Counted from the first letter of the stretch, positions 41,272-56,321 are shown. The stretch is 64,000 nucleotides of DNA from an uncultured Thermotogae bacterium (GCA_964473325.1 CAYYOG010000004.1:48258-112257), one strand, 5' to 3'. Translations and numbers: made by a program. The notes: generated by a model not told the origin, from the sequence alone.

Positions 41272-42201
41272 ATGCATCACGAGCCGGAAGAAGAGATCCC
41301 GCCACAACGTGGGTACTGGGTGCCTCAGAACTTCGGAGGGCTGCCTCCGGAGTTCTCTCGTTTTGCGTCGGCGCGTGCGGTCGTTCTCCCTGTGCCGTAT
41401 GATCTGACGACGTCGTATCTAGCAGGCACACGTCACGGCCCTCAAGCAATCATCGAGGCGTCGGAACATTTGGAGCTTTACGACGAAGAGCTCCAGTGTG
41501 AGCCCTATCGCGTAGGGATTCACACCCTGCCTCCGCTGGAGCCTTCAGCAGCTAGTCCCCAAGAGACTCTCCAGCGCGTCGAAGAAGTCATTGCGTGGCT
41601 TGTGGACCATGACAAATTCCCAGTGATGCTCGGTGGTGAACACTCGCTGACGCTTGCGCCTGTGCGGGCGTTCCGAAAAAGATTCAAAGAGTTTTCGGTC
41701 TTGCAGCTCGATGCCCATGCTGACTTGCGTGACAGTTTCCAGGGCACACCATTCAATCACGCTTGTGTCGGGCGACGGATACACGAGCTTGGGGTCAACC
41801 TCGTGCAGATCGGGGTTCGCGCGATTAGCCCTGAAGAAGCTGAATTTATCAGCAGGGCGAGGAATCTGCACGTCTGCTTCGATTATGCGCTGCAGAGCGA
41901 CTCAGCCCAAATTGAAGAAGCTCTCCATAGGCTGCGTACCCTCGTCTATGTGACTATAGACTTAGACGTCTTCGACCCCGCGCTGATGCCCGCTGTGGGC
42001 ACCCCAGAACCCGGTGGGCTCGATTGGTACACTGTGCTCAAGATTCTCCGATACGTTAAAGAAACACACACGGTGCTCGGCTTTGACGTCGTCGAGCTGT
42101 GCCCTATTGCGGGGATAGTGGGGCCGAACTTTCTTGCTGCCAAGCTCGTCTACAAGATGCTCGGCTATTTTCTCAGCACGACGAAAGGAGGTCAGAGATG
42201 A
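41272..42201 (+). CDS. speB: Agmatinase (ureohydrolase family)
   Basis: GGEHS, DAHADL, DLDVFDP, GTPEPGG motifs. Confidence 0.9.
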
Positions 42202-42752
42202 ACGATTTTCCCCTGGTGCCGACGCGGGTCTTCTTCACGAAGGGGGTCGGGACACACAAGGAAGAGCTGCGCTCATTCGAGGCAGCGCTGCGTGATGCAG
42301 GGATCGAAAAATATAATTTAGTCCATGTCTCGAGCATCTTGCCACCGCGGTGCAAGATCATCCCGAAATCTGAGGGGCTCAAAGAGCTCAAGCCGGGGCA
42401 GATCGTCTTCTGCGTCATGGCGCGCTGCTCCAGCGATGAACCTCGTCGGCTTATTGCTGCGTCTATCGGGTGTGCCGTGCCCGCTGACCCTGATGCCTAC
42501 GGGTATCTCAGCGAACACCATGCCTACGGACAGAACGAAAAGCAAGCGGGCGACTACGCTGAAGACCTCGCAGCTTCTATGCTGGCCTCTACCTTGGGAA
42601 TTGAGTTCAACGACACAGCGAACTGGGACGAGAAAGAGCAAGTCTGGAAGATGTCGGGGAAGATCGTGCGCACGCGCAACGAGACGCAAACAGCAATTGT
42701 CAACGGCGACGGGTGGACGACAGTCGTCGCGGCAGCCGTCTTTCTCTTCTAA
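42198..42752 (+). CDS. pdaD: Pyruvoyl-dependent arginine decarboxylase
   Basis: [36 protein letters not shown]; ATGA overlap with speB. Confidence 0.9.
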
Positions 42753-42753
42753 A

Positions 42754-42837
42754 CCAGGCTTCGCCTGCACGCTGCGCGTGGGCTTCATCTTCGCCGGCCC
42801 CTGGCCGGCGAAGGCGTACGGTCCAGGCGAAGCCTGG
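42754..42837 (-). repeat. MITE-like repeat family B, complete copy
   Basis: Perfect 14-bp terminal inverted repeats CCAGGCTTCGCCTG/CAGGCGAAGCCTGG; internal CTTCGCCGGCC/GGCCGGCGAAG hairpin; 84 bp. Confidence 0.88.
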
Positions 42838-42852
42838 CCCACACGCGGAGTG

Positions 42853-42881
42853 TTGACAGAATCACCGATATCGATTAATAT
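42853..42881 (+). promoter_or_regulatory. sigma70 promoter of tRNA-Lys/Glu
   Basis: TTGACA-17-TAATAT, 9 nt before the tRNA. Confidence 0.7.
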
Positions 42882-42890
42882 AAAAGAGCT

Positions 42891-42963
42891 GGGTCGTTAG
42901 CTCAACTGGTAGAGCATCCGGCTCTTAACCGGAGGGTTGTAGGTTCGAGTCCTACACGACCCA
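42891..42963 (+). tRNA. tRNA-Lys (CTT)
   Basis: Acceptor GGGTCGT/ACGACCC; anticodon arm TCCGG-CTCTTAA-CCGGA; GGTTCGAG T-loop; CCA not encoded. Confidence 0.95.
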
Positions 42964-42970
42964 CATCTTT

Positions 42971-43043
42971 GTCCCCATCGACTAGCGGTCTAGGTCACGG
43001 CCCTTTCAAGGCCGAAACGGGGGTTCGAATCCCCCTGGGGACG
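42971..43043 (+). tRNA. tRNA-Glu (TTC)
   Basis: Acceptor GTCCCCA/TGGGGAC; CGGCC-CTTTCAA-GGCCG; GGTTCGAA T-loop; CCA not encoded. Confidence 0.95.
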
Positions 43044-44187
43044 TATCTAGTCTATCGCTCACCAGCTCGATCAAGTCTGTGACTTGAATCTGGCTGCCTA
43101 CGACTTTTGTGGCCTCGTGGAGGTTCACCATGCAGAATTGGCAAGCCGTCACAACAAGATCAGCGCCGGTGTCGATGGCCTGCTTCAAGCGAGTCTCGGC
43201 TAAGCGTGCTTGTTCGTCTTTGATGGGCTCAACCCACATCCTGCCGCCACCGCCCCCGCAACAGAGCGCGCGTTCTCTACAGTCTTTCATCTCGATCAAC
43301 GTGACGCCGGGCATCGCGTTGATGATCTGCCTAGGGGCGTCGTAGATCTTATTGTGCCTGCCCAAAAAGCAAGGATCATGATACGTAACTTTAATCGGTG
43401 GCCCCTCAGCGAAGCTCAATCGGCGAGCTTGGAGAAGCTCTGCAAGGAACTGAACATAGTGCTGCACTTCCCAAGGTCCTGAAGGGTACTCATTTTTGAA
43501 AGCATTATAGCAGTGAGGTGACCCAGCCACGATCTTCTTGATCTTATACTTGTGCCAGAGCGCAGTATTAGTGTCAACGAGCATCTGAAAGAGCCCTTCT
43601 TCACCCAAACGGCGAATGCAACTGCCGCAACAGTTCTCTTCTTCTCCTAGGATGCCAAAGGGAATCCCAGAGTGTATCAAGACACGGACCATAGATTGAG
43701 CGATCTTCTGGGCTCTGGGATCATACGAGGCAGCACAACCGACATCATAGAGTATTTCCGTGTTTTCCGTGGGACGCCCGATATTGAGTGCAGCAGCCCA
43801 TTTAGCGCGTTCGCTCCGTGGCTTGCCCCAAGGGTTTCCGTACCGATCTGTCCCTTTAAAAGCAGCAAAGAGTGCCTTCGTGACGTGTTGAGGTACGCTG
43901 CCATTCTCGACGGCCCGGCTCCGCAGTGAAGCCAAAACTTCTGGAGGCTTGACTGCCATGGGACAGCGTGCCACGCAGGCGTTACAACTCGAGCAAACCC
44001 AGAGCTGCTCAGAACTGAGAACTTCTTCTGGTGCCAGTTGTGCTTTGAGCATTAACTTCCTCGGGTTGAAGCCCACGGTAGTGCTAAAGGGGCAGATGCT
44101 GCCGCAGGCCCCACACTGAAAACAGATATTCGCTTGCCGCAGCCTCGACTCTATGACTTTCTCGATATCAGTTATCTCTGCTGCCAT
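43006..44187 (-). CDS. HdrD/GlpC-like Fe-S oxidoreductase (2x4Fe-4S + 2 CCG domains)
   Basis: CFQCGACGSICP, CSSCNACVARCP, ENCCG, YHDPCFLGR, LCCGGGGG. Confidence 0.88.
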   Translation of the reverse strand: MAAEITDIEKVIESRLRQANICFQCGACGSICPFSTTVGFNPRKLMLKAQLAPEEVLSSEQLWVCSSCNACVARCPMAVKPPEVLASLRSRAVENGSVPQHVTKALFAAFKGTDRYGNPWGKPRSERAKWAAALNIGRPTENTEILYDVGCAASYDPRAQKIAQSMVRVLIHSGIPFGILGEEENCCGSCIRRLGEEGLFQMLVDTNTALWHKYKIKKIVAGSPHCYNAFKNEYPSGPWEVQHYVQFLAELLQARRLSFAEGPPIKVTYHDPCFLGRHNKIYDAPRQIINAMPGVTLIEMKDCRERALCCGGGGGRMWVEPIKDEQARLAETRLKQAIDTGADLVVTACQFCMVNLHEATKVVGSQIQVTDLIELVSDRLDTSPGGFEPPFRP

Positions 44188-44203
44188 ACTCTATCTAGCT
44201 CCT

Positions 44204-46009
44204 TCATAGTGCTTCTGCGACCAGCTCGGCGATCTCTTTGACTGCGATTCGCTTTTCATTCGCAGTAGTTTTAATAGCATCGCTGAACATCACTATGTCT
44301 TTGGGGCACGCTACGACAAGGTACTGTACTCCGTTTAGTGCAACAGCTTCGCGGACGCGACTCTCGCTGGGGCGCTCCTTCAAGTCAGCGAGCTCTTCCA
44401 TCCAGATCCGGCCACCCCCAGCGCCACAACAGTACGAATGCCCAAACGAGCGAGGCATCTCTCTGATCTTTACCCCTAAAGCGCGCAGCACCCGACGCGG
44501 AGGATCATACACCCCGTTGCAGCGCCCCAAATAGCATGGATCGTGATAGGTCAGCATATACTCGAGCTTCTGACGGAGGCGGAGCTTGCCCGTTTGGATC
44601 AGATCGTCTATAAGCTCTGTATGGTGAAGGACTACTTTGTCCCAGTTGTACTCGTTCTTGAGCGCATGGTAGCTATGGGGGTCTGTGGTCACGATCTTTT
44701 CGCAGCGCTCCATCGCTTTGATGTTCTTCTCTCTCAATATCTCGAAGAGCCCTTCTTCACCCACGCGGCGGACGTCTGTGCCCGCGTTCCGCTCTCCCTC
44801 GTAAAGAATGCCAAAATCCAGCCCTGCAGCACGGAAGATCTGTGCTACAGCCCGGGTGATCGGCTGCACCCTTGGGTCATAAGAAGCGTAGTCCCCGACA
44901 AACCATAAATATTCCACCGGCTCTGTGCGGGCATCTTTAATGTGAAAATCGAGCCCTTCCGTCCATTTGGGACGAGCGCGCTCTGACTTCCCAAACGAAT
45001 TGCCATAGCGTGTGAGACGAGCTAGGACATCTTGTAGTGATTGGTCCATCTCACCGCGTGCTACAAGGGCACGACGCATCTCCACGATGAGCGCGACATG
45101 CTCATTGAGAATAGGGCACCGCTCCATACACGCATAGCAAGTAGTGCATGACCAGATCTCTTTGGCTGAGATAGCATCGCCGGCAGGATTTGTCGCGCAC
45201 ATCAGCTCTTTGATATGGTGGATAAGCATCTTGGGCGAGAGCGCGGAACCGCTGTTCAAGGCGGGGCAAGCGCGGTCACAGCGCCCACACGCGGCGCAGG
45301 TCAGGCCGTTGAACAGCTGGCGCCACGTGAACTCTTCAAGGCGTGAGGCTCCCTCCGAGGGCGGTGGCACACTCCCAGGACGTAGCGAACCAAAGAACAC
45401 ACTGAAGGGCGAAGCCACTATGTGCCAGTGGTCTGAGAGCGCCATAAGGGCGACTATGGCCAGGCCAGCTCCTATGTAGATCCACCATACCCATGGAAAA
45501 GAATTCCTCAGGAGAAAAGCAAGAAGCATTACCCCGGAAAGCAGCTTGAGGACTAGAGTAGCATCAGCTGCTCTTTCCAAGCGAGGAGGAGTGAAAATAT
45601 AGCGTCGCACAGCTGCTACTATTAATGCTGTCAGAGCGAATGCACCCAGTACTTCCAGAGCAGAAGCCATCCACGGCACTTCATAAGCATAAGCAATAGG
45701 GGCGAAGGGGAACAGCTCCTTGAACAGGTTCCAGAGAAAGCCGACTGCGTGAAAGACGAACGCCCAAAAGATAAAGAAATGAGCGACACCGATCAGGGGC
45801 TCTTCAAAGAGCTTCTTTTGTCCCAATACATAGGTGAGAACAAGCTTGACCCGCTGAGGGAGTTGATCCCAGCGGTTTTCAGGGCGTGCTCTCTTGAAGA
45901 GGCGAATATAATGTACCGCGCGCCAAATGAAAAGAGAAAAAGAAGCTGCCGTGCCAAGCCAGAGAAGGAGACTTCCCACAAGCGTTGTTGTGGTATGCAT
46001 CTCGCTCAT
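44204..46009 (-). CDS. Membrane-anchored FadF/HdrF-like Fe-S oxidoreductase
   Basis: N-terminal TM domain (AHFFIFWAF), CAACGRCDRACP, CTTCYACMERCP, YHDPCYLGR, YCCGAGGG. Confidence 0.85.
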   Translation of the reverse strand: MSEMHTTTTLVGSLLLWLGTAASFSLFIWRAVHYIRLFKRARPENRWDQLPQRVKLVLTYVLGQKKLFEEPLIGVAHFFIFWAFVFHAVGFLWNLFKELFPFAPIAYAYEVPWMASALEVLGAFALTALIVAAVRRYIFTPPRLERAADATLVLKLLSGVMLLAFLLRNSFPWVWWIYIGAGLAIVALMALSDHWHIVASPFSVFFGSLRPGSVPPPSEGASRLEEFTWRQLFNGLTCAACGRCDRACPALNSGSALSPKMLIHHIKELMCATNPAGDAISAKEIWSCTTCYACMERCPILNEHVALIVEMRRALVARGEMDQSLQDVLARLTRYGNSFGKSERARPKWTEGLDFHIKDARTEPVEYLWFVGDYASYDPRVQPITRAVAQIFRAAGLDFGILYEGERNAGTDVRRVGEEGLFEILREKNIKAMERCEKIVTTDPHSYHALKNEYNWDKVVLHHTELIDDLIQTGKLRLRQKLEYMLTYHDPCYLGRCNGVYDPPRRVLRALGVKIREMPRSFGHSYCCGAGGGRIWMEELADLKERPSESRVREAVALNGVQYLVVACPKDIVMFSDAIKTTANEKRIAVKEIAELVAEAL

Positions 46010-46965
46010 CCTTTAGGCCTTCTAAGGGCATCTACCAAGGCGTGCAGCATATCTGAGGCCTCAGCGACAACGCCGTAGTGTGCCACGTTAAAGATAGGAG
46101 CTGCAGGGTCAGTATTCACTGCCACGATGAGCTCAGAATTTTTCATGCCTTCTGTGTGTTCAGGTGCCCCGCTAATCCCTAACGCAAGATAGAACTTGGG
46201 CTTCACTTGAATCCCTGAGCTCCCCACTTGTCGTGTGGCCGGCAGCCATCCCTGGTCGATCACGGGACGCGAGCCGCAGACCGCTCCACCCAATGTCTTA
46301 GCCAGCTCTTCTGCTACAGCAAGGTTTTCCTGATCGCCAATGCCGCGTCCCACGGCTACTAAGACGTCCAGCTTTGTAATGTCGAGATCGCCTGCTGCTG
46401 GCTCTATGTATTTCACGAATTTCACCTTGGGCGTTTCAGGAAGAGCTACGTGTACTGTCTCGATAGGGGGCATTCGTTCTGTGCGCCGTGCAGGCCTGGC
46501 CCCAGGTAAAATCCCCAAAATGGTCATCGGCGCTTCTGATGCAGCCGTGACCTCGATCTTACCCCCGTACAAGAGACACGTAGCTTGAATGGTACCGTCT
46601 ACTACGAAGACATTTTTGCAAGAGTTCACAAAGGGGACATTCAGCTGTGCAGCAAGCAAAGCTCCCAAATCCCACGACAGATTTGTCAACGGGATCAAGA
46701 GCGCCTTGGGCTGACGCTCCTTCAGGAGCATGGCCAGCGCCTCAGCGTACACTTCCGGTGTAGCGTCGGCTAGGGCCGGGCAGTCCGCATAAAGAACAGC
46801 ATCAGCCTCGCCTAGCTTTTCTCCCAGTTCTCTCATATTATGCCCAAGCAGTACAGCTTCTACTTTAGGAGCCAACTCTCGAGCGAGCGAAAGCATCTCG
46901 TAGGTCACTTCAGAGATCTGCCCTCTCCAGTGCTCAGCGAATACCCATACGGTCATAGCTCTCAC
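46006..46965 (-). CDS. etfA: Electron transfer flavoprotein alpha subunit
   Basis: VAVGRGIG, GSRPVID.GW, QVGSSG, GISGAPEH, AVNTDP.APIF. Confidence 0.92.
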   Translation of the reverse strand: MRAMTVWVFAEHWRGQISEVTYEMLSLARELAPKVEAVLLGHNMRELGEKLGEADAVLYADCPALADATPEVYAEALAMLLKERQPKALLIPLTNLSWDLGALLAAQLNVPFVNSCKNVFVVDGTIQATCLLYGGKIEVTAASEAPMTILGILPGARPARRTERMPPIETVHVALPETPKVKFVKYIEPAAGDLDITKLDVLVAVGRGIGDQENLAVAEELAKTLGGAVCGSRPVIDQGWLPATRQVGSSGIQVKPKFYLALGISGAPEHTEGMKNSELIVAVNTDPAAPIFNVAHYGVVAEASDMLHALVDALRRPKG

Positions 46966-47738
46966 CCTTGTGGAAGAAGGCCACGAGCAGATAGGAGCTC
47001 GCAGATTTTTCTGGCGACTTCTTCAGGAGAGCCTTCTAAAAATTCTGCGCGCTCAGCAACCTGCGGCTTCGCCATGCGAACGACCTTGACTGGACTCGAC
47101 GTTGACACTGCGGGTGCAGCAACGCTCTCGATCTTCTGGGATTTCATGGCAGCCCGAACCTTCACTACGGGCACGTAGCGTGGCGGCTGCTCGGCCGATT
47201 GAATCCCTAGAACTGCCGGCAGAGGGATCTCGAATTCGCCGCGTATCCCGCCGGCATATTCTCGGGTTACGAGAGCCCTCTGATCCGTAATCTTCACCGA
47301 TGAGATGATCCCCAAGTAAGGCAGCTTCAGAGCCTGCGCGAGGCTCGGGGCCAGCAGCCCATCGAGGTCATCAATTGCTTGAACCCCCGTCAGAATAAGA
47401 TCTGCTGGCCACGCCTCAGCGAGAGTCGTCAGGGTTTGGGCAAAAAGCCGCGCGAGGCCAGCAGTACTGGAAACGCTCTGTGGAGCGGAGACCTTGATCG
47501 CCCGATCTGCTCCCTTCGCTAAAGCAGTAAAGAGAACATCATCGACACCGGGAGCCTCCAGCGCTAGAACCGTCACTGTCCCGCCATGACGCTCTTTCAG
47601 AAGCAACGCTTGTTCGAGAGCGTGTTCGTCACGCTCGTTGGCAATGAAGCGAAGATCGGAAAGATCTAAAGAATTTTCAGAAATTTTTAGCTCCTCTACG
47701 ACGTCAGGCACCATCTTGAGGAGAACGAGAATCTTCAT
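46962..47738 (-). CDS. etfB: Electron transfer flavoprotein beta subunit
   Basis: MKILVLLKMVPD, DEHALEQAL, ALAKGAD, LTGVQAID. Confidence 0.92.
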   Translation of the reverse strand: MKILVLLKMVPDVVEELKISENSLDLSDLRFIANERDEHALEQALLLKERHGGTVTVLALEAPGVDDVLFTALAKGADRAIKVSAPQSVSSTAGLARLFAQTLTTLAEAWPADLILTGVQAIDDLDGLLAPSLAQALKLPYLGIISSVKITDQRALVTREYAGGIRGEFEIPLPAVLGIQSAEQPPRYVPVVKVRAAMKSQKIESVAAPAVSTSSPVKVVRMAKPQVAERAEFLEGSPEEVARKICELLSARGLLPQG

Positions 47739-47749
47739 GTTCAGCTCCG

Positions 47750-50140
47750 CTAAACCAAAACTTGTACAGCTTTCTCTATCTCTTCTTCCGTCACGGTAGC
47801 TAATAGCTTTTCTAGCTCTTTGAGCTTTTCCACGAACTTGTCGGCCTCGCTGGCACTGAACCAGCCCAGCTGTAATCGTTCGGGATTAATGCCTTTGGCC
47901 ACAAGCTTCTTCCTCCAGCGAGTAAACCGCTCTTTGGCCTTGAGGTTCCCCTGAATATAGTGGCACTCTCCTTCGTGACACCCGCTCATCAAGACGATTC
48001 CCGCTCCTCTCTTGAAAGCGTGCAGAACGAAGGCCTCATCGATCCGCCCGGAGCACATCGTCCTGATAATTCTGACTGAAGCGGGGTACTCCATGCGAGA
48101 GATCCCGGCCAGATCAGCCGCTGCATACGAACACCAATTGCAAGCAAATACGAGTATCTTCTCTTTCGCGTTGGTTTCCAAAGCCGCATCTATCTGGGCC
48201 AAGATCTGCTCATCGGTGAAGTGGCGTTGCCTGATCGCGTTACTTGGGCACTCGGCAACACAGGTCCCGCAGCCTTGACAGGCAGCCTCGGTGATCTTCG
48301 CTTTCCCGTCCATCTGAGCCGCATGGAATGGGCAGACCTTCTCACAGAGCTTGCACGCCGTACACTGCTCTTCGTTGACTACAGCTGTCAGGGCTTCGAT
48401 CTTGATAGCGCCTTCTTTCATGAGGCGGCTAGCTCTGGAAGCGGCGGCCTTGGCTTGAATGGAGCTCTCTCGAATGTCCTTAGGGCCCTCTGCCGTGCCA
48501 GCGAGGAATACGCCAGCGATAGCCGTATCGACGGGCTCAAGCTTCGGGTGCTTCTCCAAGAAGAATCCCGTCGCGTCGCTTGAAAGATTGAACTTCTTTT
48601 GGAGGTCCTTGCTCCCTGCTCCTGGCTCTAGACCGACGGAGAGTATCACCATATCGACGGTCTGCTCATAGACTTCACTGAGCAAGATATTCTCCCCGCG
48701 GAGGGTGAGACTCTTATCTGGATTCTCGGTGATTTGAGAGGGAATGCCCTTAACGAAACGAATTCCTTCGGTGCGCGCACGCCAGTACATCTCCTCAAAG
48801 CCCTTGCCCTTGGCCCTGATATCTATGTAATAGACTGTGATCTGAGCTGAGGGTAGTTTCTCCTTGAGCAAGAGGGCCTGCTTGATGGTGATCATACAGC
48901 AGATGCCGCTGCAGTAGGGATGGGCCCCAAATGCAGCGTTGGTTGCGCGTGAGCCCACACACTGAATAAACGCTACCCGCTCAGGAGGTTTGCGCGTGCT
49001 GGGCCGGATCAGCTTGCCCCCGGTGGGACCAGTGGGGCTGATAATGCGCTCGAAATCCAGCGTCGAGATGACATCATCGAATCTGCCGTATCCATACTCA
49101 GGAATGCTGCTGGGATCGAAGGCATCCGCTCCGGTAGCGACGATGACCGTGTCCGCATGGATTTGAAACTCTCTTTCGTAAGGGGTGTCAAAACTGATAG
49201 CTTTGGCCTGGCACGCTTCTATGCACCTCTCACACGCGATAAAGTTCTCTTTATTCAAGCACGCTGCAGGATCTATAGCATATTCAGCGGGCACAGCTTG
49301 GGGGAAGGTCTTGTAGATGGCCTTTCTTTGGGAGAGCCCCGCGTTGAACTCGTCAGGGACCGTGATAGGACAAACGGCGACACAGTCGTTGCAGCTGGTG
49401 CAGTCCTTACTCACAAACCGAGCTTTTTGTCTAATGGTCACGGAGAAATTACCCACGTGGCCTTTGACTTCTTTGACCTCAGCGTTAGTTAAGAGCTGGA
49501 TGTTAGGATGGCGAGCCACCTCGGACATCTTGGGCGCTAAAATACACGTGGAGCAGTCCAGGGTGGGGAAGGTCTTGTCCAGCTGGGCCATCCGGCCACC
49601 GATGAACGGCTCCTTTTCTACTAGATAGACTGTATAACCGGAATCAGCGAGATCCAAAGCTGCTTGAATTCCAGCGATCCCGCCGCCGATGACCAGACAA
49701 TGGGAGCCGATGGCGATCTCGCTGTCTTTGAGTGGCTGAAGCAATCGCGCCCGGGCCACCGCCATCTTAATGAGATCTTTGGCTTTTTCTGTCGCTTGAT
49801 GGCCGTTCTTATGCACCCAGCTGGCTTGCTCGCGGATGCTCGCCATCTCAAATAAATACTTATTCAAGCCGGCTCGCTCACAAGCCGCCCGAAAGGTGGG
49901 CTCATGCATCTTCGGCGAGCAGGCAGCGACCACCACTCGGTTTAATTTCTGTTCTTTGATGTCGAGCTCGATCTCGCGCTGGCAAGGCTCTGAGCAGGCG
50001 TACATCATGGTTTTCGCGACCACGACGCCGTCTAAATCCTTAGCGAACTCCGCGACTTCTTTGACATCGACGACGCCGGCAATATTCGTGCCGCAGTGGC
50101 AGATGTAGACCCCAACACGGATTTCTTCTGTCGGTTTCAT
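47750..50140 (-). CDS. hdrA: Heterodisulfide reductase subunit A fused to MvhD
   Basis: VYICHCGTNI, VAACSP, VIGGGIAG, QLDKTFPT.DC, QCVGSR, CSGICC, four CxxCxxCxxxC motifs; C-terminal MvhD FACNWCSY..CSGRID..GCHEGECHY. Confidence 0.92.
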   Translation of the reverse strand: MKPTEEIRVGVYICHCGTNIAGVVDVKEVAEFAKDLDGVVVAKTMMYACSEPCQREIELDIKEQKLNRVVVAACSPKMHEPTFRAACERAGLNKYLFEMASIREQASWVHKNGHQATEKAKDLIKMAVARARLLQPLKDSEIAIGSHCLVIGGGIAGIQAALDLADSGYTVYLVEKEPFIGGRMAQLDKTFPTLDCSTCILAPKMSEVARHPNIQLLTNAEVKEVKGHVGNFSVTIRQKARFVSKDCTSCNDCVAVCPITVPDEFNAGLSQRKAIYKTFPQAVPAEYAIDPAACLNKENFIACERCIEACQAKAISFDTPYEREFQIHADTVIVATGADAFDPSSIPEYGYGRFDDVISTLDFERIISPTGPTGGKLIRPSTRKPPERVAFIQCVGSRATNAAFGAHPYCSGICCMITIKQALLLKEKLPSAQITVYYIDIRAKGKGFEEMYWRARTEGIRFVKGIPSQITENPDKSLTLRGENILLSEVYEQTVDMVILSVGLEPGAGSKDLQKKFNLSSDATGFFLEKHPKLEPVDTAIAGVFLAGTAEGPKDIRESSIQAKAAASRASRLMKEGAIKIEALTAVVNEEQCTACKLCEKVCPFHAAQMDGKAKITEAACQGCGTCVAECPSNAIRQRHFTDEQILAQIDAALETNAKEKILVFACNWCSYAAADLAGISRMEYPASVRIIRTMCSGRIDEAFVLHAFKRGAGIVLMSGCHEGECHYIQGNLKAKERFTRWRKKLVAKGINPERLQLGWFSASEADKFVEKLKELEKLLATVTEEEIEKAVQVLV

Positions 50141-50679
50141 AATGGGAGAGATCGCACCCCGTGCTCGTAGCCTGTGTGAAAGGCTGCTTCGTTCAGTTCT
50201 TGGGCCTTCTTAGGAACGGTATCGAGAATTGCTTGTTGCATCGCTTGAGGACTGACAAGCTTGGTCACCGCCGTGAAGAAGCCCAGCATGACAATATTCG
50301 TGACGACCCTCGTGCCGAGCCCTTCCGCAAGGCGATTGGCCCCAATCTTGTAGATCTGGGCATCGCCATGGTTGTGTGTATTTATAGTGACAAGGTCTTC
50401 ATCGAAAATAATGATCCCGTGGAGCTGGTGAGCACCATAGACGTTATAAGCCTCTTGAGACATAAATACGGCAATATCCGGTTTGATAACCTTCGGGTAA
50501 TCGATAGGGGCGTCAGAGATGATGACATCAGCACTGACTCTGGCTCCACGGCTTTCTGGCCCGTAGGACTGAGTCATGACCGCGTTCTTCTTGTCGAGAA
50601 GGGCGGCTTTCCCCAAAATGAAGCCAGCTGTAACGACACCCTGACCGCCAAAACCGCTCAATCTGACCTCAACTTTCAT
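50137..50679 (-). CDS. korC: 2-oxoacid:ferredoxin oxidoreductase gamma subunit
   Basis: SGFGGQG, SYGPESRG, NIVMLG. Confidence 0.88.
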   Translation of the reverse strand: MKVEVRLSGFGGQGVVTAGFILGKAALLDKKNAVMTQSYGPESRGARVSADVIISDAPIDYPKVIKPDIAVFMSQEAYNVYGAHQLHGIIIFDEDLVTINTHNHGDAQIYKIGANRLAEGLGTRVVTNIVMLGFFTAVTKLVSPQAMQQAILDTVPKKAQELNEAAFHTGYEHGVRSLPL

Positions 50680-51530
50680 GATGTGATGACCCCGGCTTTT
50701 TGTAGCACTTCGCGCTGTCTCTCGAGGAAAGTAGGCCTTTCTCTATCGATGAAGTTTCCCAGCACGATCTTCGAGCCTTTCTTCATGGTGATCCCAATCT
50801 CATGGAGATCGGCGTGCGGGTCAATGACGGAGCTCTCTTGGTACCATTTCATTTCATCGAGTCCCATGCCCAAGTCATTAGGGCGACCAAAGCTCGTAGG
50901 GCATGGGGCTAGGACTTCGATAAAAGTGAACCCGTTCTTCTCAAAGGCTCTGCGGATCGCATCCCGGAGGTGACGGACATGCAGGGTCGTCCACCGCGCT
51001 ACGAAGACTGCGCCCGCTGCCGCAGCCAGATAGGGCAGATTAAACCCGTCCTCCGAATTGCCGTAGGGGGAGGTCGTCGTAAACGCATATTCTGGGGTAG
51101 TTGGCCCCAGCTGCCCCCCAGTCATGCCGTAGTTGAAATTATTCACACAAATAACGTTCAAGTCTATATTCCTGCGGGCTGCATGGATGAAGTGATTACC
51201 GCCGATGGCGAACAAGTCCCCATCGCCGCTGAAGACAGTGACTTCTAAGCTTGGGTTGGCAATCTTCAGGCCAGTCGCAAACGGGATCGCCCGGCCATGA
51301 GTCGTGTGATACGAATCGATGTTCACGTAGCCGGCAACTCTGCCTGTACACCCGATGCCTGAGACGATGATCTGTTTTTCGATGGGGATTGGCGCGCTGC
51401 GCATGGCTTCAATATAAGCCATCATAGCCACGCCGAGGCCGCAGCCAGCGCACCAGATATGGGGCATCCGATCTGCACGTAAGTACACGTCTTCAGGGTG
51501 TGTATCTGCCTTACAAATCGCTGTGCTCAT
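50676..51530 (-). CDS. korB: 2-oxoacid:ferredoxin oxidoreductase beta subunit
   Basis: WCAGCG, SGIGC, HGRA, TPP motif SGDGDL.AIGGNH, NYGMTGGQ, PCPT. Confidence 0.92.
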   Translation of the reverse strand: MSTAICKADTHPEDVYLRADRMPHIWCAGCGLGVAMMAYIEAMRSAPIPIEKQIIVSGIGCTGRVAGYVNIDSYHTTHGRAIPFATGLKIANPSLEVTVFSGDGDLFAIGGNHFIHAARRNIDLNVICVNNFNYGMTGGQLGPTTPEYAFTTTSPYGNSEDGFNLPYLAAAAGAVFVARWTTLHVRHLRDAIRRAFEKNGFTFIEVLAPCPTSFGRPNDLGMGLDEMKWYQESSVIDPHADLHEIGITMKKGSKIVLGNFIDRERPTFLERQREVLQKAGVITS

Positions 51531-51539
51531 GAGAATCTC

Positions 51540-52664
51540 CTAAACGCATTCTTCAATAGCTGCAGTTATAGCTTCGGGAGGCATCATATCTCCCCCAGCG
51601 TGCACAACTCGCTTCACCGGATAACGGGCGAAGCGCTCTACCTCCCGCGCCATCTGGCCCAGGTTCACTTCTGGGACGATGAACTTTCTGTCTGCAAGTT
51701 CCTTGATCTTCTCTTCAGGGAATGGCCAGCACGTGATAAGTCGCAGCAAGCCAACGCGGATCCCGCGCTCCCTGGCCTCTCGCATAGATTTTCTTGCTGA
51801 GCGCGCTGTCGAGCCGTACGCCACGAGCACGATCTCCGCATCTTGCAAGAAATACTCTTCGTATTCGATGATCTCGTGTCTGTGTTTTTGGATCTTCTGC
51901 ACGAGGCGGGCGAGCATCCGTTGATGCGCTTCCGCGGTGGTCGCAGGATAGCCTCGCTCGTCATGGGTCAAACCAGTAACGTGGATTCTGTATCCCTCTC
52001 CAGCGAGCGCCATAGGAGGTACAAGGTCTTCATCGGGCTCAAAAGGCTTGAAGCCATTCTTCCTCAGAGGCCGCTTTCTGTTTATAATCTGTATATCTTC
52101 TTCCTTGGGAATGACGACCCGCTCGATCATATGGCCTACGATCTCATCAGCCATGACGAAAGCAGGCACTCGATATCTTTCGGACATATTGAACGCTTTG
52201 ATCGTGAAGTCGAACATCTCTTGGGGGGAGCTGGGGGCATAGGCGATGACCTCGTAATCGCCATGGGAGCCCCATTTGGCTTGCATCATATCGGCCTGGC
52301 TCGTCAGAGTTGGCAACCCTGTAGAGGGCCCTCCTCGCTGGACATCAATAATAACAAAAGGGGTCTCCGTGATGAACCCCAGGCCAATGTTCTCTTGCAT
52401 CAAAGAGAAGCCCGGCCCGGAAGTAGCAGTCATTGCTTTCAACCCTGCACAAGAGGCTCCGAGAACGGCAGCGATGCTTGCCAACTCATCCTCCATCTGG
52501 ATGAAGTGGCCTCCGACTTGGGGGAGCCTGCGGGCCAACCGCTCGGCAACCTCACTAGACGGTGTAATTGGGTATCCCGCGAAGAAACGGCACCCCGCGG
52601 CAATAGCTCCTTCGGCCGCCGCGAAGTCGCCGTTCATGAAGTGCTCTCCCGTCAGGACTTTCAT
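51540..52664 (-). CDS. korA: 2-oxoacid:ferredoxin oxidoreductase alpha subunit
   Basis: GYPITPSSE, QMEDE, TATSGPGFSLMQE, QRGGPSTGLPT. Confidence 0.92.
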   Translation of the reverse strand: MKVLTGEHFMNGDFAAAEGAIAAGCRFFAGYPITPSSEVAERLARRLPQVGGHFIQMEDELASIAAVLGASCAGLKAMTATSGPGFSLMQENIGLGFITETPFVIIDVQRGGPSTGLPTLTSQADMMQAKWGSHGDYEVIAYAPSSPQEMFDFTIKAFNMSERYRVPAFVMADEIVGHMIERVVIPKEEDIQIINRKRPLRKNGFKPFEPDEDLVPPMALAGEGYRIHVTGLTHDERGYPATTAEAHQRMLARLVQKIQKHRHEIIEYEEYFLQDAEIVLVAYGSTARSARKSMREARERGIRVGLLRLITCWPFPEEKIKELADRKFIVPEVNLGQMAREVERFARYPVKRVVHAGGDMMPPEAITAAIEECV

Positions 52665-52670
52665 TCTCTC

Positions 52671-52926
52671 TCACCCAACTTCGACGCTGTAAATGGCAAA
52701 CTCTGGACAGATCAACATACAGGTCTTGCAGTCTACGCAGGCTTCTTCTTGGCCGGCCTTCACTCGAGGAAGATGGTACCCTTTGCTGTTGATCTCCTCA
52801 GATTCTTCTAAGACTTTCTTAGGGCAGAATGTCCAACAAAAGCCGCATCCCTTACATCGTTCGGGGATGATATGGACGCGCCCTCGAGGGGTTCTCAACT
52901 TCTCTCCGAGGAGTTTTTGTGCACTC
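52671..52926 (-). CDS. korD: 2-oxoacid:ferredoxin oxidoreductase delta subunit (2x4Fe-4S)
   Basis: [28 protein letters not shown]; start assumed near MSAQKL (approximate). Confidence 0.85.
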
Positions 52927-53416
52927 ATACGCTCTTTTTTTAGTATAAATGGTTGACACAAAATTGCCATGACGTTGATCATGATAAGTATTGATTCTAC
53001 ACAGATATCGCTTGCTGGCCCTCTTGATAGATGTCATGACTTCCAACTGCAAAGATCACTACAATAACAAACAGTTACCCCATTGGCTGTAGAATTGCTG
53101 AAGCGCCGTAGTCGCTATGGCTCACCCCCCAGCCTGCCGAGCGAGGCCGTCTGAGTAGCTTTTCTACAGCTTGGCTGGGTCGAGTATCTCTTGCTTGCTT
53201 GGATTCGAGCCAGCCTGTGACTTCACAGACTTGATCGACAAAGACAAAGCTGCGACAGATGTTGGCTGTAAGATGAAACGCGCGAGTGAGTATGAGGAAG
53301 AAACGTGCGGCAGGGCATCGGTTACGTTCCGGACATTGAGCATCTGGGGAGAGCATGGCGAGACTACTCTAACCGATACTGGGGGGCAGAACAAGTTAAT
53401 CCACTCCCAAGGGTTA

Positions 53417-53445
53417 TTGACGTGTACCCTATCAGGTGTTACAAT
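53417..53445 (+). promoter_or_regulatory. sigma70 promoter of tRNA-Gly/Arg/His
   Basis: TTGACG-17-TACAAT. Confidence 0.75.
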
Positions 53446-53458
53446 TATTAAGACCTCC

Positions 53459-53530
53459 GCGGGCGTAGCTCAGAGGTAGAGCACTGGCCTTCCAAGCCAG
53501 GTGTCGCGGGTTCGATTCCCGTCGCCCGCT
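53459..53530 (+). tRNA. tRNA-Gly (TCC)
   Basis: GCGGGCG/CGCCCGC; CTGGC-CTTCCAA-GCCAG; GGTTCGAT. Confidence 0.95.
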
Positions 53531-53533
53531 CCC

Positions 53534-53603
53534 CCAGGCTTCGCCTGGACCGTACATCTTCGCCAGCCACAGGCTGGCGAAGACGAGGCCCACGCGCAGC
53601 GTG
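53534..53603 (+). repeat. Repeat family B, copy filling the Gly-Arg spacer (right TIR absent)
   Basis: CCAGGCTTCGCCTGGACCGTAC..CTTCGCCAGCC/GGCTGGCGAAG..GGCCCACGCGCAGCGTG matches the reverse complement of 42754-42837. Confidence 0.88.
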
Positions 53604-53678
53604 CGCCCGTAGCTCAATGGGAAGAGCAGGGCCCTTCTAAGGCTCAGGTTGCAGGTTCGAGCCCTGCCGGGCGCGCCA
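53603..53678 (+). tRNA. tRNA-Arg (TCT)
   Basis: GCGCCCG/CGGGCGC; anticodon loop CTTCTAA; GGTTCGAG; CCA encoded. Confidence 0.93.
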
Positions 53679-53679
53679 G

Positions 53680-53749
53680 CAGGCTTCACCTGCACCGTAC
53701 GCCTTCGCCCGCCAGAGGCGGGCGAAGATGAAGCCCACACGCAGTGTGT
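53680..53749 (+). repeat. Repeat family B, copy filling the Arg-His spacer (right TIR absent)
   Basis: CAGGCTTCACCTGCACCGTACGCCTTCGCCCGCC/GGCGGGCGAAGATGAAGCCCACACGCAGTGTG. Confidence 0.88.
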
Positions 53750-53827
53750 GAGGGACGTAGCTCAGCCTGGCAGAGCATCGGCCTGTGGAGCCGACCGTCG
53801 CGGGTTCAAATCCCGTCGTCCCTCCCA
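53750..53827 (+). tRNA. tRNA-His (GTG)
   Basis: Encoded G-1 opposite C73; AGGGACG/CGTCCCT; TCGGC-CTGTGGA-GCCGA; CCA encoded. Confidence 0.95.
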
Positions 53828-53828
53828 G

Positions 53829-54251
53829 ATGCGCCATAATATAATAATATGGGTTGGCATAGTGCTGATGGTGGGGGCAATAGGTCTCTCTGGGTGTGCT
53901 CCGCTTGTTGTGGAGGAAGCCCAGCTCGATGAGCCCTTCACACTTTTTGTCCGACAAAAGGCCCAAGTTGGCGATCTCCAGATTCGCTTTATCGGCGTGC
54001 CAGAGGACTCTCGGTGCCCTGTTGGTGTCGATTGCGTCTGGGCTGGAAACGCAAAGATCGTGCTGGGCGTCTCCCTTAAAGGCAGTACGGAAGAGACTGC
54101 AATCACTCTCAATTCGACTGTAGACCCTCAAGAAGCTCTCTACGCGGGCTATCGCATTCGGTTTGTCTCCCTCAAGCCGACGCCCCTCAGTGGACGCGCG
54201 ATCAATCCTGCAGAGTATCGCGTCACTCTGATCGTCTCGCGGGCACCCTGA
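53829..54251 (+). CDS. Conserved hypothetical lipoprotein
   Basis: MRHNIIIWVGIVLMVGAIGLSGC lipobox; EDSRCPVGVDCVWAG Cys-pair motif. Confidence 0.75.
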   Translation: MRHNIIIWVGIVLMVGAIGLSGCAPLVVEEAQLDEPFTLFVRQKAQVGDLQIRFIGVPEDSRCPVGVDCVWAGNAKIVLGVSLKGSTEETAITLNSTVDPQEALYAGYRIRFVSLKPTPLSGRAINPAEYRVTLIVSRAP

Positions 54252-54261
54252 TATTCTTTGA

Positions 54262-54783
54262 TCAGGAGATCACGATCACGAAAAGTTCTTGCGGCCCGTG
54301 CACGCCGATCACGGGCGTCAGTTCTATATCAGCTGTGCGGCTTGGCCCGGTCACGAAGACAAAATCCCGCGGGGTGCGTTCGAGCTCTCTCTGGCAGAAC
54401 GCGAAAGCTTCCTCGAGCGTCTCAACAATCTGATCGGCGCGAATGACAGCAATATGCACTGGCGGTAGCGCCGCGACCAATTCTGAAATCCCATCATGAC
54501 TGATGAGCAGCGAGCCTGTCTCGGCGACAGCAAGTTCAGCTCCTGAAATCCCGACATCGGCGCGGGCGATCTCATGCCCGTTGACAAGCTCATAGCCGTC
54601 TTTGCGCAGCGTGTTCTCTACCCTGTGCGCAAGAGCAAACGGTGCGAGGGCGACAGCGCGGGCGTGGCGCGAGCGTACGATCTCCAACACAAGCTCCAGG
54701 GCGTGCTCTTCAGAGCTAGCGCGGTGAGCTTTTCCCGCGACGCGCTCTAGCTCGTCTATGAAGCGTCCCACAAGATCGTTCAT
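54262..54783 (-). CDS. lutC: LUD-domain protein LutC/YkgG
   Basis: AVAETGSLL, LPPVHIAV, VTGPSRTADIE..V.GVHGP. Confidence 0.88.
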   Translation of the reverse strand: MNDLVGRFIDELERVAGKAHRASSEEHALELVLEIVRSRHARAVALAPFALAHRVENTLRKDGYELVNGHEIARADVGISGAELAVAETGSLLISHDGISELVAALPPVHIAVIRADQIVETLEEAFAFCQRELERTPRDFVFVTGPSRTADIELTPVIGVHGPQELFVIVIS

Positions 54784-56150: not shown

Positions 56151-56204
56151 AGCTGATCAGTACTAAATCCTAACTGAACACGTGCGCAGCGTCAAATCGC
56201 GCCC

Positions 56205-56233
56205 TTGCAGTGCTCGCACTCTTGCCCTATAAT
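56205..56233 (+). promoter_or_regulatory. sigma70 promoter of tRNA-Thr
   Basis: TTGCAG-17-TATAAT. Confidence 0.7.
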
Positions 56234-56246
56234 TTTTTTGTCCAAT

Positions 56247-56318
56247 GCCGGCGTAGCTCAGCGGTAGAGCAACGGTTTCGTAAACCGTGGGTCGGAGGTT
56301 CGATTCCTCTCGCCGGCT
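56247..56318 (+). tRNA. tRNA-Thr (CGT)
   Basis: GCCGGCG/CGCCGGC; ACGGT-TTCGTAA-ACCGT; GGTTCGAT. Confidence 0.95.
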
Positions 56319-56321
56319 CCC

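Follow-up and report, generated by a model that had tools for sequence, protein, structure and literature searches.

Three copies of a 70–84-nt palindromic element were found in the window, the whole 64,000-nt stretch of DNA analysed here, and they likely belong to a non-autonomous, mosaic, REP/BIME/REPIN-like family of uncultivated Bipolaricaulota (Acetothermia), which is mobile and favours the borders of stable-RNA genes. The copies were located at positions 42754–42837 (copy A), 53533–53603 (copy B), and 53679–53749 (copy C). The pattern of the central hairpin was matched three times in the window, against 0.01 matches expected from 100 shuffles; the repeat is real and not a product of chance.

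The element was a mosaic composed of a 25-nt central hairpin (H; CTTCGCCNGCC-NNN-GGCNGGCGAAG) and the small flanking hairpin modules a (CCAGRC-TTC-GYCTGG), b (CAAGC-TTC-GCTTG), and c (CACGC-TGC-GCGTG), which were all of the form CANGC-NNN-GCNTG, with stems of 4–6 bp and loops of 3 nt. The canonical unit consisted of an a module, 9 nt, H, 8 nt, and a b or c module. It was frequently closed by a second, inverted a module, which gave the unit its appearance of terminal inverted repeats (TIRs). The architecture was regular and modular across about 100 copies, and the modules occurred in set combinations. The 70-nt a-H-c form was a common complete architecture in the family, a> ... a< ends were present on at least 15 full copies from related genomes, and the a-H-a form was a 73-nt near-perfect palindrome. 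Modules also stacked on one another at a spacing of 0–1 nt, which points to structure-directed placement. Among 46 copies of the b module, CGTC stood in front of 33 and GGTC in front of 10, followed by AAGC...GCTT. The loop of H was hypervariable, with 25 different triloops. The sequence GCGAAGC or GCGCAGC was present in 58 of 64 copies, and GCGNAGC is a DNA mini-hairpin motif (PMC13037366, PMC3201870). A base triple was considered for columns 5, 11, and 18 of the a module (G-C-C or A-T-T) and was rejected, since the stem was not homopurine and recombinant forms occurred; these columns represented a subfamily marker.

Copy A was the full 84-nt form and read a>(9)H(8)c<(-1)a< on the minus strand, with spacings in nucleotides in parentheses. 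The outer 14 nt were perfectly inverted (CCAGGCTTCGCCTG / CAGGCGAAGCCTGG), and the central hairpin (42789–42813) was CTTCGCCGGCC-CCT-GGCCGGCGAAG, with G:C as the variable pair. The predicted fold of copy A had an energy of −57 to −60 kcal/mol, with a z score of about −6 to −7. On one side, copy A began 2 nt after the stop codon (42750–42752) of a PvlArgDC/pdaD gene (Pfam, E=1.6e-62). On the other side, 15 nt separated its end from a promoter-like site of tRNA-Lys, TTGACA-17-TAATAT (42853–42881, plus strand). An 84-bp element with perfect 14-bp TIRs between the pdaD stop and the tRNA-Lys promoter was thus present as an earlier note on this DNA had described it. A degenerate c-type module, CCCACACGCGGAGTG (42838–42852, plus strand), adjoined the −35 hexamer and was part of the 99-nt insertion that includes copy A. 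The promoter-like site itself was outside the element and was conserved in two related species (L059 and L022). Copy A was located upstream of this promoter and was therefore outside the tRNA transcript. The genes of tRNA-Lys(CTT) and tRNA-Glu(TTC) (42891–43044, plus strand) were separated by a 5-nt spacer without an element, and the tRNA-Thr gene of the window was also without one.

Copies B and C, located on the plus strand and opposite in orientation to copy A, filled the Gly–Arg and Arg–His spacers to the nucleotide, which bears out the claim that the two copies make up these whole spacers. A promoter-like site, TTGACG-17-TACAAT (53417–53445, plus strand), preceded the Gly-Arg-His operon, so that both copies would be co-transcribed with the tRNAs. 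Copy B, a 70-nt form a>(9)H(8)c< with the central hairpin at 53558–53582 (variable pair A:T), occupied the whole spacer after tRNA-Gly(TCC) (53459–53532, plus strand), whose 3′ end was CCC here and CCA in relatives. The last G of the c module of copy B, at 53603, was also nucleotide 1 of tRNA-Arg(TCT) (53603–53678, plus strand), in which CCA was encoded. Copy C, a 71-nt insertion, was composed of an a-variant GCAGGCTTCACCTGC, a central hairpin (53703–53727) with C:G as the variable pair, and a c-variant CACACGCAGTGTG. Its borders were exact, with the CCA of tRNA-Arg on one side and the G-1 of tRNA-His(GTG) on the other (53750–53827, plus strand, including a genome-encoded G-1 at 53750). Neither copy B nor copy C had a second a module. 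The right TIR, which had been thought to be missing where the tRNA begins, was not truncated by the tRNA, as the a-H-c form is complete in itself. In a covariance-model scan of positions 42000–57000 with Rfam, only tRNAs were detected at E ≤ 1. Repeats at 26446–26920 were considered as members of the same family and were rejected, as they belonged to a different sequence family on reading.

The family was then scanned in related genomes, using one genome per species and requiring the exact central hairpin. At least 114 loci were found among the matches listed, mostly from 12 Bipolaricaulota/Acetothermia metagenome-assembled genomes (MAGs; at least 12), of which DAIPXV01 carried at least 26 copies. 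A tRNA end was located within 36 nt of H in 42 of the 100 copies listed, against an expectation of about 1% (1.3% of sampled positions were as close to a tRNA end), where the copy percentages are rough because the sample was incomplete (at least 114 loci), the exact H was required, and orthologous sites were included. When diverged copies were added, 45 of the 106 copies listed were at tRNA ends. The distance between H and the tRNA had a mode of 19–24 nt, which means that the outer module abutted the tRNA at −3 to +1 nt, and the module start was likewise at −3 to +1 nt where a terminal tRNA had a free 3′ flank. Seventeen different tRNA junction types were occupied, among them the Gly–Arg spacer (four species) and the Arg(TCG)–Leu(TAG) spacer (seven species). 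The a module was found 33 times at tRNA 3′ ends and 5 times at 5′ ends, whereas the c module was found once and 12 times, respectively (Fisher p=4e-7); in most cases the a end adjoined the 3′ CCA, and the c end adjoined nucleotide +1. Where a genome had few copies, almost all of those sampled were at tRNAs, which could mean that copies at tRNA borders are old and have been retained for a reason. Copies were also present in contigs labelled Bryobacteraceae, Thermotogae, and Fraserbacteria, which could reflect mis-binning or true spread. No copy was found in viral contigs, and carriage by phages is unsupported.

The proposal of a tRNA-targeting mini-element with a bias to tRNA genes was thus upheld in the relatives' genomes, but the claim that the repeats occur only at tRNA clusters was correct for the 64-kb window and not for the family. 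Among the copies listed from related genomes, 53 of 98 were located more than 110 nt from any tRNA. In-frame copies, flanked on each side by Pfam domains, were found in the genes of aconitase, Dxr, ArgRS, and Sua5; the aconitase copy was at the same residue in two species, and the copy in a Dxr linker was also found in two species. In four species, copies were located within RNase P RNA, in helices P3 and P12. No conserved target motif was visible by eye at the non-tRNA copies, and CCA preceded the a module at tRNA sites.

When the window was compared with L059 and L022, the sites of copies A and C were empty. The Arg–His spacer in these species was 0–1 nt, against the 71-nt insert in the window, and only 4 nt (ACGC or GCGC) were present between the pdaD stop and TTGACA, against the 99-nt insert. 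The comparison of empty and filled sites gave no target-site duplication at A and C, with at most one ambiguous shared G at C. The Gly–Arg spacer, the site of copy B, was occupied in L059, L022, and L105 with a different module make-up, and a relative in run X7 had 23 unrelated nt instead of copy B. Orthologous spacers in relatives likewise carried differing module combinations and H variants. Copy A was present in runs X2, X4, X5, and X6, and the filled site of copy C was present in X2, X4, and X5. In X6, a hot-spring metagenome, a contig of a near-identical strain joined 53678 directly to 53750, with 0–2 differences in the flanks, no depth over the element, and a depth of 487, equal to that of the strain. 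These differences indicate that the family is mobile now or was so in the very recent past, and that insertion or excision is precise and without target-site duplication. For the difference in X6, parsimony with the empty relatives alone would favour an insertion rather than a precise excision. The label of a miniature inverted-repeat transposable element (MITE), which the earlier note had used, fits only loosely: the ends of copy A are inverted over 14 bp, but there is no target-site duplication, the architecture is a mosaic, and no partner transposase was found in the sampled loci.

The stems of the element were conserved, with 98.8% of cells paired and 8 pairs changed on both sides, a result reached by none of 500 shuffles. 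The compensatory variants G:C, A:T, and C:G were as previously described, but they do not separate RNA structure from DNA structure and are no proof of selection on RNA. Such changes are equally expected from a DNA hairpin that is recognised in transposition or from templated correction of quasi-palindromes. Mismatches in the central hairpins linked to tRNAs, counted by eye, comprised three G.U and three A.C on the sense strand; they showed no RNA-strand bias, and this comparison was uninformative. Assembled metatranscriptome contigs of relatives spanned element–tRNA junctions at a depth that was low compared with tRNA-only contigs, and no defined RNA ends were readable in them. RNA depth, as the average over each contig, reached 77,000 (X23) over sequence resembling an a module plus H, in contigs at 85% likeness and with other flanks. 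This depth was considered as a sign of a released spacer RNA and was rejected, because it belonged to other loci of 85% likeness and was averaged over the contig. Copies in RNase P RNA are a plausible source of the abundant element-like RNA; a search of the loci for the flanks of this RNA gave nothing useful.

The hairpins may alternatively be selected RNA elements of the pre-tRNA, that is, a domesticated structured spacer that guides RNase P, RNase Z, or RNase III, insulates the folding of adjacent tRNAs in a thermophile, or supplies a spacer RNA of about 70 nt. The position of copies B and C inside a tRNA operon with a predicted promoter, the RNA contigs that cover spacer and tRNA, the maintenance of stems by compensatory change, and the T that c and b modules put at position −1 of the tRNA are all consistent with such a role. 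The same holds for the repeated occupation of the Gly–Arg and Arg(TCG)–Leu(TAG) spacers, the orientation of a modules towards 3′ ends and c modules towards 5′ ends, and the concentration of sampled copies at tRNAs in low-copy genomes. However, close relatives have neither copy A nor copy C at the corresponding sites, a near-identical strain also lacks copy C, another relative has unrelated sequence where copy B would be, and copy A is not in the tRNA transcript. The Lys–Glu pair and tRNA-Thr of the window do without elements, and elements of the same sequence are found in either orientation and inside protein genes and RNase P RNA. The equal numbers of G.U and A.C mismatches and the plausible origin of the very abundant RNA in RNase P RNA also argue against a domesticated spacer, which we consider quite unlikely. 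The corresponding claim of the earlier note, a domesticated spacer or a released small RNA, was not supported. As a point against the mobile-element reading, the polarity of a and c modules relative to tRNA transcription could reflect selection at the RNA level rather than strand-specific insertion.

Two further explanations concern how the copies came to lie at tRNA ends. Insertion could be untargeted, with tRNA flanks enriched only because leaders and trailers that are cut away make insertions neutral, so that they persist in a very compact genome. The genome is indeed compact, as the empty sites of the relatives show, the insertions into RNase P RNA are in the length-variable helices P3 and P12, and copies in genes are within linkers or insert-tolerant regions. 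But positions within a few nt of tRNA ends are estimated to cover about 0.01–0.02% of a genome of about 2 Mb, against about 25–42% of copies or independent sites, the module start at terminal tRNAs is confined to −3 to +1 nt rather than lying anywhere in the trailer, and the stacking of modules points to structure-directed placement; such a filter acting by itself is unlikely. An origin of the a-H-c unit in a spacer between tRNAs, made of a 3′ trailer hairpin and a 5′ leader hairpin, with later spread among tRNA clusters by gene conversion at conserved tRNA ends or at microhomology (CCA, G1) and not by transposition, is very improbable. Copy A, between a stop codon and a promoter, and the sites in protein genes and RNase P helices have no tRNA homology, and the flanking tRNAs are of 17 kinds with little sequence in common. 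This origin would nevertheless account for the a module often sharing the CCA of the tRNA, for the last G of c or b being nucleotide 1 of the tRNA, and for the differing module combinations and H variants in orthologous spacers, and it agrees with the absence of a transposase in the RayT search of about 670 kb.

The likely reading therefore remains that of a mobile, REP/BIME/REPIN-like family. The element probably moved as single-stranded DNA. Its single-stranded hairpins would be mobilised in trans by an enzyme that recognises structure and is of the HUH/Y1 type (IS200/IS605 or RAYT) or akin to it. Its preferred targets would be heavily transcribed, hairpin-forming stable-RNA genes, and selection would afterwards remove all insertions except those at the edges of genes and the tips of helices. 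In the Gly-Arg-His precursor, copies B and C would be removed by RNase P and 3′ processing and, being cut away, would be tolerated passengers and not required signals. A required role in processing is not supported, and nothing indicates that the family is needed by the cell. When E. coli RayT was compared by tblastn with about 670 kb (the 114 loci and the window), the best match had E=0.16; this match, in L012, was rejected because it was inside a 294-aa membrane-protein ORF. No candidate for an autonomous insertion sequence with the same ends was found in the sampled loci.

Palindromic repeats of the REP, BIME, RPE, and MITE types are common in bacteria. To our knowledge, the site choice of small palindromic repeats is mostly unknown, and several families have no known mobilising enzyme. 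The family resembles the REP/BIME/REPIN elements of proteobacteria, which depend on the Y1 HUH enzyme RAYT, in its short GC-rich imperfect palindromes, high copy number, and pairing of inverted units into a single long hairpin. In both, different units are joined by fixed linkers into mosaic clusters, stems show compensatory changes, target-site duplications are absent, and copies persist vertically at orthologous sites. However, the GTAG tag, which is the RAYT cleavage site, was lacking, with GTAG or CTAC anywhere in only 1 of 64 copies, and the sampled DNA (about 670 kb) yielded no RAYT gene, which in the known system is usually flanked by REPs. In contrast to the extragenic REPs, many copies were inside genes, and about 40% of the copies listed abutted tRNA genes to the nucleotide. 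We know of no description of exact tRNA-gene abutment for REPs. A literature search gave no account of such repeats in Bipolaricaulota or Acetothermia, and none of REP-like elements in bacteria that target the borders of tRNA genes.

The superfamily of CGTC-tagged REPs, which includes the Rickettsia palindromic elements RPE-4 and RPE-6, has stems of 8–9 bp, loops of 4–5 nt, and noted CCA 'tails' (Di Nocera et al. 2013, PMC3733652). The b modules, and only these, share with it an unpaired CGTC beside a stem that starts with A-T, and the two groups are also alike in head-to-head dimers, in-frame copies in protein genes, and the lack of a known dedicated transposase (PMC3733652). They differ in the 4–6-bp stems and 3-nt loops found here, in the additional conserved 25-nt central hairpin, and in the phylum, and a preference for tRNA borders was not reported in PMC3733652. 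The Rickettsia palindromic elements as a whole match only in behaviour, with in-frame copies in protein genes and copies in RNA genes, while the sequence family and host phylum are different. The palindrome-associated elements derived from IS200/IS605 (PATEs, 'peel and paste') also have hairpins at or near their ends and insert or excise precisely without duplication, and dependence on single-stranded DNA would be an expected further likeness. The elements described here are much shorter and modular, and no conserved target motif of 4–5 nt, 3′ of which IS200/IS605-type elements insert, was seen at the non-tRNA copies.

GC-rich palindromic repeats of organelles are likewise located beside tRNA genes in compact genomes, and both a signalling role in processing and a selfish, mobile nature have been discussed for them. 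They are unrelated in sequence, whereas the present family has empty sites and strain differences, nucleotide-exact abutment, and a host in a free-living bacterial phylum. The retrotransposons of eukaryotes that target tRNA genes (Ty3, Dictyostelium TRE) are similar as mobile elements homing to tRNA genes as safe sites. However, they are autonomous, find their sites through Pol III factors, integrate at a distance of tens of bp, and generate duplications, and both mechanism and sequence are unrelated. A more specific proposal, which we regard as possible and advance tentatively, is that a transposition system acting on single-stranded DNA and guided by structure or transcription directs insertions to stable-RNA genes (those of tRNAs and RNase P RNA), at their borders and at helix tips. 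It would recognise either its own hairpin modules or the base of the acceptor stem, and its copies would now be the standard inter-tRNA spacers and the P3 helix of RNase P RNA throughout the phylum, with a possible secondary role in pre-tRNA processing. If true, such a homing system would be a bacterial counterpart of the Pol III-targeted retrotransposons of eukaryotes.

The extreme and easily scored preference for tRNA ends, the recent insertion that is polymorphic in near-identical strains, and the clean, duplication-free junctions are useful traits of the family, and together they make target choice and mechanism testable. In practical terms, the repeats break MAG assemblies and create spurious 'conserved structured spacers', which could be taken for regulatory RNAs. 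The family also shows how selfish hairpins can be built into pre-tRNA transcripts and RNase P RNA, here in a thermophilic phylum that is deep-branching and uncultivated.

Six tRNA genes were located in the window by ARAGORN and Rfam: tRNA-Lys and tRNA-Glu (42891–43044), tRNA-Gly, tRNA-Arg, and tRNA-His (53459–53827), and tRNA-Thr (56247). Three copies of one palindromic repeat lay at the Lys-Glu and Gly-Arg-His clusters: copy A (42754–42837, 84 nt), copy B in the Gly-Arg spacer (53533–53603), and copy C in the Arg-His spacer (53679–53749). The motif of their 25-nt central hairpin (H), CTTCGCCNGCC-NNN-GGCNGGCGAAG, had three matches in 64 kb, where 0.01 would be expected. As the earlier note had read, the variable pair of this hairpin was G:C in copy A, A:T in copy B, and C:G in copy C, and both spacers were fully occupied by copies B and C. 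Copy A began 2 nt 3′ of the stop codon of pdaD, which encodes a pyruvoyl-dependent arginine decarboxylase (Pfam PF01862, E = 1.6e-62), and was followed by a degenerate extra hairpin module and a TTGACA-17-TAATAT promoter-like site. A second promoter-like site was located upstream of copies B and C, both of which lay within the Gly-Arg-His transcription unit. The final G of copy B was nucleotide 1 of tRNA-Arg, and copy C was bounded by the tRNA-Arg CCA on one side and by the encoded G-1 of tRNA-His on the other. Whichever strand was taken, all window copies folded far better than shuffled sequences (z −3.8 to −6.8), and an Rfam scan of the copies gave no family match. The 3′ end of tRNA-Gly was T-CCC (53530–53535), so CCA repair or addition is needed; in the related-genome loci L059, L022, and L105, T-CCA directly preceded the family's hairpin module named a (described below). 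A different palindromic repeat, GGCCCTCACCCC...GGGAGAGG...GGTGAGGGCC, occurred in two copies at 26446–26920 and was ruled out as a family member because its sequence is unrelated.

Relatives were sampled by scanning genome contigs for the central-hairpin pattern, which gave at least 114 loci, all listed from assemblies other than that of the window. Among the matches listed, about 85 came from 12 assemblies named Bipolaricaulota or Acetothermia, a few more complete copies were in bins labelled Fraserbacteria, Bryobacteraceae, and Thermotogae, matches in other phyla were bare hairpins without flanks, and the loci nearest to the window were L022 and L059 (80–84% identity). The complete off-label copies (L094, Bryobacteraceae; L053, Thermotogae; L037, L056, L067, L080, L097, and L105, Fraserbacteria) reflect either mislabelled or contaminated bins or a family range wider than Bipolaricaulota; L105 had the same Gly-element-Arg-His cluster as the window. 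Contig ends or starts fell inside copies in several MAGs (e.g. L033, L036, L073, L107, L009, L021, and L038). So many copies exist that short-read assemblies break at them, and MAG-based copy numbers are therefore underestimates.

The build was modular and regular across the approximately 100 copies read. Three small hairpin modules flanked H and shared the form CANGC-NNN-GCNTG, whose middle pair varied in a compensatory way: a (CCAGGC-TTC-GCCTGG or CCAGAC-TTC-GTCTGG), b (CAAGC-TTC-GCTTG), and c (CACGC-TGC-GCGTG). The commonest unit was a-9 nt-H-8 nt-(b or c), often with a second, inverted a module 0–1 nt further on, and the a-9-H-9-a form was a near-perfect palindrome of 73 nt. The right terminal inverted repeat described earlier corresponded to this second a module and was present in copy A, the full form, but copies B and C were not cut off by the tRNA as had been supposed; both were the common 70-nt a-H-c form. 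GCGAAGC or GCGCAGC was found in 58 of 64 copies, on the strand opposite the TTC/TGC loops; the GCGNAGC motif forms DNA mini-hairpins of extraordinary stability (PMC13037366, PMC3201870).

The location census comprised 100 exact-pattern copies from Bipolaricaulota-type loci and the window, among the matches listed; a tRNA end lay within 36 nt of the central hairpin in 42 of them, and in 45 of 106 when diverged copies among the matches listed were added. Only 1.3% of sampled bases were equally close to a tRNA end, in loci that are themselves tRNA-enriched by the association. The distance from H to the tRNA peaked sharply at 19–24 nt, followed by 68, 77, and 106 nt and then >1.9 kb, and a peak at this distance puts the outer module in contact with the tRNA gene, at −3 to +1 nt. 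The tRNA 3′ CCA was often common to the a module, and tRNA nucleotide 1 was the final G of a c or b module, leaving T at −1. With orthologous, non-independent sites included, a modules occurred 33 times at 3′ ends versus 5 times at 5′ ends, and c modules once versus 12 times. At least 17 tRNA junction types were occupied, which excludes one inherited insertion. Copies are very strongly enriched at tRNA borders and, more broadly, at stable-RNA genes.

The claim that the repeats were found only at tRNA clusters was wrong for the family, since the other half of the copies lay elsewhere, for example in protein genes and RNase P RNA. In-frame copies were found in aconitase at the same residue, about 430, in two species (L003 5379–5448 and L095 4821–4890), in the linker between the Dxr domains in two species (L041 and L045), and once each in ArgRS (L085) and Sua5/YrdC (L096); Pfam domains flanked every one on both sides. 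RNase P RNA contained family units at four orthologous loci of four Bipolaricaulota species (L087 802–1305, L061 2493–2920, L060 5485–5891, and L108 2473–2839). The P3 helix of the L087 RNA was an a-H-a palindrome (57 extra nt), and P12 held related units, whose central hairpin in some cases differed (GTGCCGCC-GCA-GGCGGCAC). A fluoride riboswitch was observed 3′ of an RNase P RNA gene carrying family units. The viral contigs searched contained no family copies.

In an alignment of 64 oriented copies with the three-hairpin structure imposed, where the search pattern had already fixed most of the central stem and subfamilies inflated the counts, standard pairs made up 98.8% of cells and both-sided changes occurred at eight pairs (69 cells). 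The observed covariation was reached by 0 of 500 shuffles, and pairing in slid controls was 19–44%. The variable central-stem pair was A:T in 59, G:C in 31, C:G in 7, and non-Watson-Crick in 9 of 106 copies; two other central-stem pairs showed double compensatory changes in a few copies, and the 3-nt loop had 25 different sequences. In DNA palindromes, compensation can also arise from templated correction or from a transposase reading a DNA hairpin. The structure is clearly maintained, as had been argued from the compensatory changes, but covariation does not demonstrate an RNA function.

In L059 and L022, Lys-Glu-Gly-Arg-His formed one five-tRNA cluster. The Arg-His gap was 0–1 nt in both (gcgcca-G-agggacg), and the window had 71 extra nt exactly there, with no duplication of the flanks. 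The pdaD stop codon was 4 nt from the −35 hexamer in both loci, and the window had 99 extra nt (copy A and the degenerate c module), likewise without duplication. The Gly-Arg spacer was occupied in all four genomes (those of the window, L059, L022, and L105), with differing module combinations and H variants; a relative in metagenome run X7 had 23 unrelated nt there. The strain of the window was present in public hot-spring metagenomes, compared at a likeness of at least 97%. Copy A was found in all four runs (X2, X4, X5, and X6). Copy C was traversed by contigs of X2, X4, and X5, whereas a 1099-nt contig of X6 linked 53678 directly to 53750 at a depth of 487 versus 493 for the strain, with 0–2 flank differences and no depth over copy C. 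These filled and empty sites indicate that copy C was inserted precisely and very recently or, as the less parsimonious alternative, was precisely excised in X6. The family is active now or was very recently.

The tRNA cluster of the window was divided into Lys-Glu and Gly-Arg-His by a minus-strand operon of ~10 kb (43045–53458; CCG/Fe-S protein and OFOR/Hdr/ETF-type genes); in L059 and L022 it was contiguous, with Glu and Gly separated by a promoter only. Near the two operon borders were a perfect 16-bp inverted repeat (43067–43082/53223–53238) and a related direct repeat (43067–43085/53205–53223). The minus-strand ORF 43006–44187 (CCG and 4Fe-4S domains) extended 39 nt into the opposite-strand tRNA-Glu (43006–43044) before its stop codon.

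The elements had hairpin modules at their ends and precise, duplication-free junctions, modules stacked at 0–1 nt from each other and from the feet of tRNA acceptor stems, helix tips were occupied in RNase P RNA, and DNA mini-hairpin motifs were present. We infer that the element is most likely moved in trans as single-stranded DNA by a hairpin-reading enzyme, candidates being an HUH/Y1 transposase (IS200/IS605 or RAYT type) and an IS110-like enzyme. A tblastn search of about 670 kb of sampled DNA with E. coli RayT as query gave no credible match. Preferred targets would be heavily transcribed, structure-forming stable-RNA genes, and of the resulting insertions selection would then retain only those at borders and helix tips. 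Random insertion and selection alone is an improbable explanation of the tRNA-border copies, because it cannot yield 25–42% of copies in ~0.01–0.02% of the genome (our estimate of target size) or account for abutment at terminal tRNAs with free flanks.

The earlier note had proposed a tRNA-targeting mini-element or a domesticated spacer guiding tRNA processing. Targeting agreed with the tRNA-border bias, the empty sites, and the strain difference, but a required role in pre-tRNA processing was not supported: relatives do without copies A and C and the sister strain does without copy C, copy A is outside the tRNA transcript, and neighbouring tRNAs have no elements. Co-transcribed copies B and C would have to be removed from the precursor by RNase P and by 3′-end processing, which fits the low-depth metatranscriptome contigs of relatives that cross element-tRNA junctions. 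A secondary benefit would be compatible with the polarity, the T at −1, and the fact that some spacers have long stayed occupied. In sediment metatranscriptome runs X23 and X24, contigs matching the a module and the left H arm (window 53524–53577) had a depth of 18,000–77,000, and the tRNA-Gly depth was about 40. Their flanks (...CACCCTTGCCCGCACCCA before, ...ATGAAGGTCAAGCGGAGCT after) had no match among the loci, and these contigs probably represent a relative's abundant stable RNA that contains a copy.

Classification as a classical MITE failed because no target duplication was found. In behaviour and build the family was closest to REP/BIME/REPIN elements, and its modular mosaic followed the logic of BIMEs and REPINs, whereas the GTAG tag of RAYT-linked REPs was absent. 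It also closely resembled the CGTC-tagged REPs, a superfamily to which some Rickettsia palindromic elements belong (PMC3733652); the CGTC tag was on b modules in 33 of 46 copies, but the stems and loops were shorter than in that definition (PMC3733652). For palindromes flanking tRNA genes, the nearest functional precedent, as far as the citing article relates it, was that of the Neurospora mitochondrial PstI palindromes (Yin et al. 1981, cited in PMC7218506). The literature searched did not describe the family reported here. The repeat family is real, well-structured selfish DNA with an unusual and testable preference for the borders of tRNA genes.
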